A stretch of 64,000 bases of DNA from a virus (taxonomy: Duplodnaviria; Caudoviricetes). Positions within the stretch are counted from its first letter, which is position 1, and each line of letters starts with the position of its first letter. Positions 2,296 through 2,676 of the stretch are shown piece by piece. Made by a program: the position numbers and the translations under genes. The notes beneath the pieces were generated by a model. The model was given only the letters and a program-made list of their open reading frames with translations. It was not told the origin of the DNA and searched no databases. Location: the IMG/VR virus record IMGVR_UViG_3300028364_000013; one strand, written 5' to 3'.

Positions 2296-2346
2296 TGGTG
2301 CCGCAGGGAGGAATGACCCTCCACTTTATAGCCTGATGGCTGCAGC
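2296..2346 (-). ncRNA. 51-nt CCA-ending mini-tRNA-like RNA (A)
   Basis: GCTGCAG/CTGCGGC stem + ACCA; GGAGG-GTCATT-CCTCC hairpin; linker TATAAAG; homologous to 2629..2676. Confidence 0.65.
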
Positions 2347-2352
2347 GTGTTG

Positions 2353-2404
2353 TGGGAGAACCAGGATTCGAACCTGAGATTGATACCTTACATATCTTTC
2401 TCCC
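2353..2404 (-). ncRNA. 52-nt truncated tRNA-like RNA (acceptor + T-arm + one hairpin)
   Basis: GGGAGAA/TTCTCCC-A acceptor; TCAGG-TTCGAAT-CCTGG T-arm; only 20 nt between them (GATAT-GTAAG-GTATC hairpin). Confidence 0.65.
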
Positions 2405-2409
2405 ATTTG

Positions 2410-2547
2410 TGCCCGTGAGTGGATTCGAACCAAAGAACTCTTTTCCCACTTTGTTGCAACGTTTCGGAATCGAGTGCAAGAATATACCAACTGTTACTCC
2501 TCACAATTAAACGTTATCATTGCGTCTTGTAATCTTGCATCACGGGC
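2410..2547 (-). ncRNA. 138-nt tRNA-like RNA with expanded D and anticodon regions
   Basis: Perfect GCCCGTG/CACGGGC acceptor; GG-TTCGAAT-CC T-loop; TGCAAGA/TCTTGCA stem enclosing the D-loop-like AGTTGGTA. Confidence 0.6.
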
Positions 2548-2552
2548 GTTTG

Positions 2553-2628
2553 TGGCGAATGAAGGGTTCGAACCTCCGACCTCTGCCATCCGAAGATGAT
2601 AGCGCTCTACCAACTGAGCTAATTCGCC
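2553..2628 (-). ncRNA. tRNA-like RNA whose anticodon loop is replaced by a cUUCGg tetraloop
   Basis: Canonical acceptor GGCGAAT/ATTCGCC, D-arm and T-arm; the arm reads CTATCATC-TTCG-GATGGCAG (20 nt). Confidence 0.8.
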
Positions 2629-2676
2629 TGGTGCAGTGGGGAAGTTTGACCTCCCGCTTTATAACCGAGTCACTGC
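2629..2676 (-). ncRNA. 48-nt CCA-ending mini-tRNA-like RNA (B)
   Basis: GCAGTG/CACTGC stem + ACCA; GGGAG-GTCAAA-CTTCC hairpin; linker TATAAAG. Confidence 0.65.

Follow-up and report, generated by a model that had tools for sequence, protein, structure and literature searches.

Candidate half-tRNA genes lacking an anticodon arm in the tRNA array of a TAG-recoded jumbo phage clade

The IMG/VR virus record IMGVR_UViG_3300028364_000013 comprises 81,256 bp, of which we analyzed a stretch of 64,000 nucleotides (the reverse strand of bases 12051-76050), in the following referred to as the window. At positions 2296-2346 and 2629-2676, the window contains two mini tRNA-like genes on the minus strand, designated mini1 (51 nt) and mini2 (48 nt), which are embedded in an array of tRNA-type genes that all lie on the same strand. 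Read 5' to 3' on the minus strand, the locus starts with a peptidyl-tRNA hydrolase gene of the PTH2 type, a tRNA with a 9-nt anticodon loop, an endonuclease open reading frame (ORF) on the opposite strand, a tRNA-Ile fragment and a suppressor tRNA. These are followed by mini2, three tRNA-like elements (C, D and E), mini1, the tRNA-like gene G and a methyltransferase gene.

According to CheckV, the 81,256-bp record is about 25% complete, which implies a jumbo phage of roughly 300 kb; PHROG matches in this phage include a ribonucleotide reductase, a DnaB-like helicase, a DNA polymerase, a tape-measure protein and a baseplate hub. Many phage ORFs contain in-frame TAG codons and the array is headed by a suppressor tRNA with the anticodon CUA, so that this phage reads TAG as a sense codon. 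The array itself sits in an accessory island, since the IMG/VR relative G001, whose DnaB is 76% identical, lacks the whole 5.7-kb segment matching window positions 1-5760 and has the flanking genes adjacent to each other. Besides the array, this segment harbors PTH2, two endonuclease genes, the methyltransferase, a cupin and two small ORFs.

In the direction 2346 to 2296, mini1 reads GCUGCAG-CC(AUCA)GG-CUAUAAAGU-GGAGG(GUCAUU)CCUCC-CUGCGGC-ACCA, and mini2 reads GCAGUGA-CUCGG-UUAUAAAGC-GGGAG(GUCAAA)CUUCC-CCACUGC-ACCA from 2676 to 2629. In mini1, an acceptor stem of 7 bp is combined with a 2-bp hairpin (loop AUCA), a T arm of 5 bp closing a 6-nt loop, and ACCA as the tail; mini2 has an acceptor stem of 6 bp plus an A.C mismatch, a tiny hairpin and likewise a T arm of 5 bp and an ACCA tail. 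The single architecture proposed for both elements in the original prediction, which had been made from the sequence of the window, was recovered in the minimum-energy folds (-22.1 kcal/mol, z = -2.9 for mini1; -17.2 kcal/mol, z = -2.8 for mini2), in which both elements show a single-stranded UAUAAAG stretch and a 6-nt T loop. Only 15-17 nt separate the acceptor 5' strand from the T arm, and the traits shared with canonical tRNAs comprise six to seven of seven acceptor pairs and all five T pairs, followed by A73 and CCA.

The kinship of the two elements was examined with a covariance model built from mini1 only, which retrieved mini2 at 33 bits (E = 2e-5) in a search of the whole 81-kb record; no third copy was found by this model across the record. 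Of the 24 cells in a structural alignment of both minis (12 pairs), 23 are paired; two-sided differences occur at four pairs, of which three belong to the acceptor stem and one to the T stem, in agreement with the earlier statement that the stems differ but stay paired. Slid-register controls of the same alignment contained zero two-sided pairs in every case. The stems of mini1 and mini2 have diverged more than linker, T loop and tail, which is the pattern that a constrained fold would be expected to leave.

No match to RF00005 was obtained on 2296-2346 or 2629-2676, even at E ≤ 10, and ARAGORN reported nothing at mini1 or mini2 in its standard, intron and mitochondrial modes. Based on these negative searches and on the missing anticodon arm, a reading of the minis as canonical tRNAs was rejected. 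A tmRNA reading was likewise discarded, as neither the ARAGORN tmRNA search nor Rfam gave a tmRNA match.

Homologues with covarying stems, as anticipated by the original prediction, were found in two relatives, namely L123, a 2.7-kb Logan contig from SRR24204717 with a 76% identical cupin, and G006 (IMGVR_UViG_3300022843_000009, 141 kb), which was detected through a motif from tRNA inserts. At the syntenic locus, consisting of PTH2, the tRNA array, the methyltransferase and the cupin, these two carry eleven elements of the same architecture, five in L123 and six in G006. The PTH2 gene lies immediately upstream of the array both in the window phage and in G006 (47476-47751), and the upstream ORF of L123 aligns with that of G006 at the DNA level. 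In L123, type a (463-513) ends in ACCA and is separated by one C from type b (515-563), whose ACCA tail abuts a tRNA-like gene; type d (671-719) has the tail UCUU and abuts an E-like element, type c (771-821) has the tail ACUU and abuts a tRNA-Ile with an insert, and type e (1195-1247) ends in ACAA. The orthologues in G006 (a', b', e', d', c' and a second e-type copy) follow the same order downstream of PTH2 and upstream of the methyltransferase.

The arrays of L123 and G006 are 70-73% identical, and among their orthologous minis eight stem pairs have changed, all eight of which are still paired. Compensatory changes between orthologues also affect the short hairpin (CGC/GCG vs UGC/GCA; GAACU/GGUUC vs GAGCU/GGCUC). 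The covariation alignment covered the six elements of the types b, c and d and showed 84 of 84 cells paired with two-sided changes at 9 of 14 pairs; neither the observed pairing nor the covariation score was matched in any of 500 shuffles. In the six 7-nt T loops, A58 is present in all and U54 in five, and C56 is not kept, which would be consistent with a T loop folding independently of any D-loop partner. A stringent structure scan returned three unrelated matches in about 248 kb of DNA from other relatives, compared with five to six elements per approximately 1 kb within the arrays, indicating that the mini architecture is rare by chance.

We then related the minis of the window to this family using the covariance model R3, which was built from six elements of the relatives without any window sequence and was run with filters off. 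Mini1 was the top match in the whole 64-kb window, although at a modest 16.7 bits (E = 0.038). BLAST aligned window positions 2375-2270 (end of E, mini1 and start of G) with L123 744-847 (end of the E-like element, c and start of tRNA-Ile) at 72% and window positions 2633-2550 (end of mini2 and C) with L123 559-640 (end of b and its tRNA-like neighbor) at 76%. Furthermore, mini1 and type c have in common the acceptor stem GC(U/C)GCAG...(C/U)UGCGGC and the T-stem strand GGAGG. Based on the top rank, the synteny and the common stems, mini1 was treated as the orthologue of type c; mini2 was regarded as a divergent paralogue occupying the place of type b, on account of its location and the alignment of its neighbor. 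Both minis share the architecture and the location of the family, that is, a stem of 6-7 bp, a hairpin, a linker, a T arm of at least 5 bp and a 4-nt tail, followed by an RNase P-type substrate.

Regarding the junctions, the zero spacer described in the original prediction is present in the window, where the ACCA tails abut G+1 of the Rfam tRNA matches at 2148-2295 and 2553-2628. Both minis are also the only CCA-encoding elements, as had been noted, the other tRNA-type tails in the 81-kb record reading ACAA, ACUA, AAUA and similar, and both downstream tRNAs are indeed aberrant: G has an 83-nt insert, and C has a C at position 37 and an arm that can refold with a UUCG cap. Across the family, the 4-nt tail is directly followed by the next gene in 8 of 13 minis, and three more have a single extra C. 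An encoded CCA tail is found in 6 of the 13 members, and the others end in CUU, CUA or CAA. The tails of orthologues read ACUU, UCUU, ACUA and ACAA; types c and d keep CUU in both relatives, which includes the closest orthologue of mini1 (type c, ACUU in L123 and G006). In the relatives, the place downstream of a mini can be taken by another mini, by a D-armless tRNA-like element or by a tRNA, either a tRNA-Ile with insert or one with a 9-nt anticodon loop.

These variable tails and neighbors restrict two of the earlier claims to the two copies of the window phage. A ready-made CCA end does not characterize the class, and the suggestion that anticodon-less tRNAs serve as dedicated processing guides is not borne out: any RNase P substrate would do, so that anticodon-less tRNAs are not marked out for this role. 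Of the sequence motifs, TATAAAG and GGUCA are common to both window copies but not conserved in the wider family.

On balance, we favor the reading that the minis are a phage family of tRNA top-half mimics, which would be excised from tRNA arrays through RNase P together with the usual enzymes of 3'-end maturation and would most likely function as decoy, competitor or ligand. As part of the same reading, the family probably comprises at least five subtypes within the hypervariable tRNA array of a TAG-recoded jumbo phage clade. Its members would then be tRNA-like non-coding RNAs of the kind that tRNA enzymes process, and this phage form is presumably new. In line with the original prediction of a new ncRNA class, the related structured elements were absent from the libraries and the literature searched, which held no description of such phage genes.

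In the mechanism we propose, the acceptor stem would stack on the T arm, with one short hairpin in place of the D and anticodon arms, and a polycistronic precursor would be transcribed from the array. As an enzyme that accepts acceptor/T minihelices, RNase P would cut at the 5' end of each mini and of the abutting gene. From the geometry of the junctions, these cuts should leave an RNA of about 50 nt with a 4-nt 3' tail, and the 5' cleavage of the neighbor would define the 3' end of the mini, as judged from known minihelix substrates. This tail already reads ACCA in the window phage; the CUU, CUA and CAA tails would have to be trimmed and supplied with CCA by tRNA 3'-end enzymes. A CCA-adding enzyme gene was not found in the records G000 and G006, both of which are fragmentary, so that this negative is uninformative. 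More distant relatives encode release-factor fragments of the RF1/PCRF type together with a CCA-adding enzyme (PolyA_pol), located at L071 4283-4963 and 10305-11489 and at L199 4113-4541 and 5575-5824; in L199, the CCA-adding enzyme gene is split by a GIY-YIG endonuclease gene.

The mature mini would offer a tRNA acceptor and T arm without any decoding capacity and, speculatively, could act as decoy, competitor or ligand for a factor that reads the acceptor end. RNase P, 3'-end enzymes, EF-Tu, peptidyl-tRNA hydrolase, some synthetases and acceptor-directed toxins all read the acceptor/T half of tRNAs. Candidate targets may be a host immune effector attacking tRNA tails or acceptor stems, or the neighboring phage PTH2. 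Bacterial immunity that targets tRNAs, including their 3' tails and acceptor ends, is described in two papers (PMC12851939, PMC10264068), and recent work also describes phage tRNAs as counter-measures. Together with the adjacent PTH2 and the mobile, endonuclease-ridden island, this literature makes mimicry of the tRNA acceptor end our leading guess, which we offer with low confidence as a conjecture. More specifically, it is possible, but tentative, that anticodon-less half tRNAs form a class of decoys or sponges for tail- or acceptor-attacking effectors, or of ligands of the phage proteins PTH2 or Ro60.

Several observations weigh against this interpretation. Model R3 gave mini1 just 16.7 bits and did not report mini2 at E ≤ 10, so that mini2 is placed in the family through its resemblance to mini1, its architecture and its position. 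In addition, the T loops deviate from the canonical form (6 nt and no C56 in the window phage), and the minis of this phage have a central hairpin of just about 2 bp. The encoded CCA of this phage is only one base away from the common ACAA spacer and may carry little meaning. The family is seen in three phage lineages only, and the nearest island-bearing relative, L069 (cupin 96% identical over 72% of the query), lacks minis, which are therefore dispensable.

As an alternative, the minis could be cis-acting parts of the precursor; in this case, a tRNA-shaped 5' leader would attract RNase P, or would shield or insulate the unusual tRNA-like gene behind it, and would be degraded once cleaved off. 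Wherever a mini directly abuts a gene, that gene is a substrate of the RNase P type and the spacer measures 0-1 nt, and the neighbors often have abnormal anticodon arms, as would suit such a leader. However, each subtype retains its particular acceptor stem, T loop and tail in phages sharing 70-73% identity, and a leader would not require constraint of this degree; some minis are followed by another mini, and the ordinary tRNAs of the same genomes are processed without such leaders. We regard this explanation as unlikely.

It also seems quite unlikely that the minis are debris, that is, internally deleted tRNA genes duplicated together with their neighbors in an island shuffled by homing endonucleases. 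The island is hypervariable and absent from G001, minis are missing from L069, L070, L071 and L198-L200, a truncated tRNA-Ile fragment lies beside the endonuclease ORF, and the unit of mini plus tRNA-like gene looks duplicated; tRNA gene fragments are also described as common in prokaryotes in a passage of PMC9897764. Against this stand stems that have diverged beyond the loops and yet remain paired, with four compensatory pairs between the paralogues and all eight changed pairs kept between orthologues, and the recurrence of the same five subtypes in two phages of just 70-73% identity. These compensatory changes speak against a tRNA fragment or pseudogene without selection on the fold; the true fragment of the array is found at 2765-2785.

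Bacterial and phage YrlA RNAs, which belong to the Y RNAs (RF02553), carry a tRNA-like module, and like the minis they are non-coding and lack an anticodon. The minis might accordingly be Y-RNA-like partners of a phage Ro60 (Rsr) protein, a reading to which we assign a low probability. [quoted passage not shown] All of these scores remain far below the gathering threshold of 69 bits, however, and an identification as YrlA proper was rejected on this basis (18-24 bits). YrlA RNAs have 100-150 nt, a Ro-binding terminal stem and a permuted acceptor hairpin, in contrast to the minis, which are closed by their own 5'/3' acceptor stem and have no Ro-binding terminal stem. Pairing of the YrlA type, between the 3' acceptor strand of the mini and the 5' strand of the next gene, reaches 6 of 7 for mini1 and 1-5 of 7 elsewhere by hand count, whereas the intramolecular acceptor stem always pairs. 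No TROVE gene is present in the 81 kb of the window phage, a record that is about 25% complete, and G003 has TROVE with no minis found in its 100 kb. The Ro60/TROVE proteins of the two related jumbo phages are encoded at G006:C1:50921-52513 (L202 3622-5214, minus strand) and G003:C1:67844-68698, and a canonical YrlA was not detected near these genes.

Aminoacylation without an anticodon, either for amino-acid donation off the ribosome or for the titration of a synthetase or EF-Tu, would be conceivable from the complete acceptor helix, the A73 discriminator and the CCA end of each mini, as minihelices are known synthetase substrates. The sequences contain no G3:U70 pair and no room for G-1, and no transferase gene was found nearby, which renders this option very improbable. 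Scarcely credible is the idea that TATAAAG is a DNA signal, namely the promoter of the downstream gene, and the fold incidental: both copies have the motif in identical form some 30 nt before the next gene starts, but a sigma-70 scan gave no promoter there, the distance to +1 is too large for a -10 element, and all orthologues lack the motif and keep the fold.

Among known RNAs, the closest counterpart to the favored top-half mimics is the synthetic acceptor/T-arm minihelix, with which the minis share a 12-bp coaxial helix of acceptor and T stem and an NCCA end. This acceptor/T domain is recognized by RNase P, the CCA-adding enzyme, EF-Tu and several synthetases. In contrast to the synthetic molecule, the minis are natural genes and possess an additional short hairpin, a linker of 4-9 nt before the T arm and non-canonical T loops. 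The tRNA-like domain of tmRNA also combines an acceptor stem and a T arm with CCA and has no anticodon; the minis differ from tmRNA in lacking the mRNA-like part, the tag frame and the pseudoknots. The arm-less mitochondrial tRNAs of nematodes and mites are similarly reduced to 42-55 nt but have retained the anticodon arm at the expense of the D and/or T arm, the reverse of what is seen in the minis. In vertebrates, mascRNA and the MEN-beta counterpart are non-decoding tRNA-like elements that are released from a longer transcript by RNase P and RNase Z and given CCA. In contrast to the minis, mascRNA keeps a cloverleaf with an anticodon-like arm; it is eukaryotic and unrelated in sequence. The tRNA cluster of phage T4 contains dimeric tRNA precursors, in which adjacent genes are separated by RNase P, as well as stable non-tRNA RNAs, species 1 and 2 (rnaC, rnaD), matured by the tRNA-processing machinery. 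These T4 RNAs are 120-140 nt long and have no detected similarity to the minis, and no T4-like match was found in GenBank phages.

The relatives were searched by several routes. Scans for the motif TATAAAG...GGTCA...ACCA in IMG/VR, JGI metagenome contigs and one genome per GTDB species gave only chance matches or coding repeats; since this motif is private to the window phage, these negatives say little about the mini family. GenBank phages contained nothing past generic tRNA similarity, single-protein searches with two array-flanking genes yielded no viral relatives, and a seed derived from the anticodon arm of the suppressor tRNA led to one unrelated phage only. With the DnaB-like helicase, many relatives were found at 69-91% identity, of which G001 lacks the island and G002-G005 gave no match. 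The cupin-like gene, located two genes downstream of the array, had about 230 homologues, whose contexts were inspected; most of these loci, that of L069 among them, contain only a tRNA-Ile (GAU or UAU), a suppressor tRNA and sometimes an E-type element. A scan of IMG/VR with the b/c/d-type mini motif returned only G006 and one conserved coding sequence, and among 52 IMG/VR matches to the insert motif GCGTGGCCACAA only G006 was real.

Turning to the neighbors of the minis, gene C (2552-2628, minus strand) is a full-size tRNA-like gene directly 3' of mini2 without an encoded CCA. ARAGORN annotates it as 'Lys CUU' in spite of the C at position 37 and of an anticodon arm able to adopt a long stem instead. 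In the L123 orthologue (564-637), GCAA takes the place of the UUCG tetraloop of C, which supports the view that these full-size neighbors truly lack an anticodon. Gene G (2148-2295, minus strand), directly 3' of mini1, has canonical acceptor, D and T arms and an Rfam tRNA match of 41.5 bits, its insert being located in the anticodon arm. Element D (2411-2547, minus strand), as read from sequence and fold, is tRNA-like and was assigned to no family; its acceptor stem (GCCCGUG/CACGGGC) is accompanied by a T arm, and the element contains a large internal insert.

Conserved inserts of 65-95 nt, on the 3' side of the anticodon loop or in the variable region, recur in tRNA-Ile-type genes (window 2148-2295, minus strand; L121 204-366; L123 822-962 and 968-1131; L178 3779-3921, minus strand). 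They have in common the motif GCGUGGCCACAA...GAGUA, and the insert of gene G shares GCGUG...GCGAGUAGUA with those of the tRNA-Ile genes of the relatives. No Rfam family matches these inserts and a group I intron was dismissed, as they are far too small; they could be an intron or ribozyme class of a new kind, or a permanent insertion.

Element E (2350-2404, minus strand) is a D-armless tRNA-like gene of about 51 nt with the 7-nt loop UGUAAGG and the tail ACAA, and orthologues with a covarying stem are found at L069 6050-6104, L121 145-200 and L123 720-769; a further E-type gene is located at L121 372-427. E-type genes combine an acceptor stem and a canonical T arm with a stem of 4-5 bp, whose 7-nt loop reads UGUAAGG or UAUCAAGG, and the anticodon-like stem shows the compensatory change GAUA/UAUC vs GGUG/CACC across relatives.

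The suppressor tRNA (2686-2758, minus strand; anticodon CUA) is the first gene of the array and fits the in-frame TAG codons. It is preceded by the 3' fragment of a tRNA-Ile (2765-2785, minus strand), whose 21 nt comprise the T loop, the 3' strand of the T stem and the 3' strand of the acceptor stem and match the tRNA-Ile 3' ends of L069. The array is split by a homing-endonuclease-like ORF (2815-3528, plus strand) matching PHROG 559 (HNH endonuclease) and 3339 (homing endonuclease), and the adjacent fragment looks like the scar of an endonuclease-mediated insertion. Upstream of this gene lies the tRNA with anticodon GAU (3574-3649, minus strand), whose 9-nt anticodon loop reads CUGAUAUUU; two such loops, CCUUAAAAA and CUUUAAAAC, occur in G006 (L178 4192-4265 and 3975-4051, both minus strand), and tRNA-Ile copies of the relatives lack U33 (loops CCGAUGU and CAGAUGU). 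Both features may reflect an escape from anticodon nucleases. The locus is bordered by the PTH2 gene (3677-4102, minus strand; Pfam PF01981, E = 5.6e-10) and, directly downstream of the array, by the methyltransferase gene (1625-2131, minus strand), which contains an in-frame TAG and is a conserved synteny anchor.

A second array at the contig end (L045 4563-5204, corresponding to genome positions 80613-81255 and outside the window) consists mostly of ordinary tRNAs, including four Ser, one Cys and one Arg, with an odd tRNA-like element at about L045 4660-4745.

The locus of the minis is thus rich in other odd tRNA derivatives that annotation pipelines miss, among them D-armless forms, tetraloop-capped anticodon arms and the conserved 65-95-nt inserts. 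Phage tRNA genes are now largely read as counter-measures to host systems that cut or modify tRNAs, and an RNA family made up of only the acceptor/T half cannot serve decoding. If the minis are expressed, they would point to a second strategy, the mimicry of the tRNA end that is recognized by many enzymes and toxins, and natural minihelix substrates would become available for RNase P, CCA-adding enzymes and synthetases. If this proves true, the tRNA-based counter-defense repertoire of phages would extend from replacement tRNAs to non-decoding mimics.

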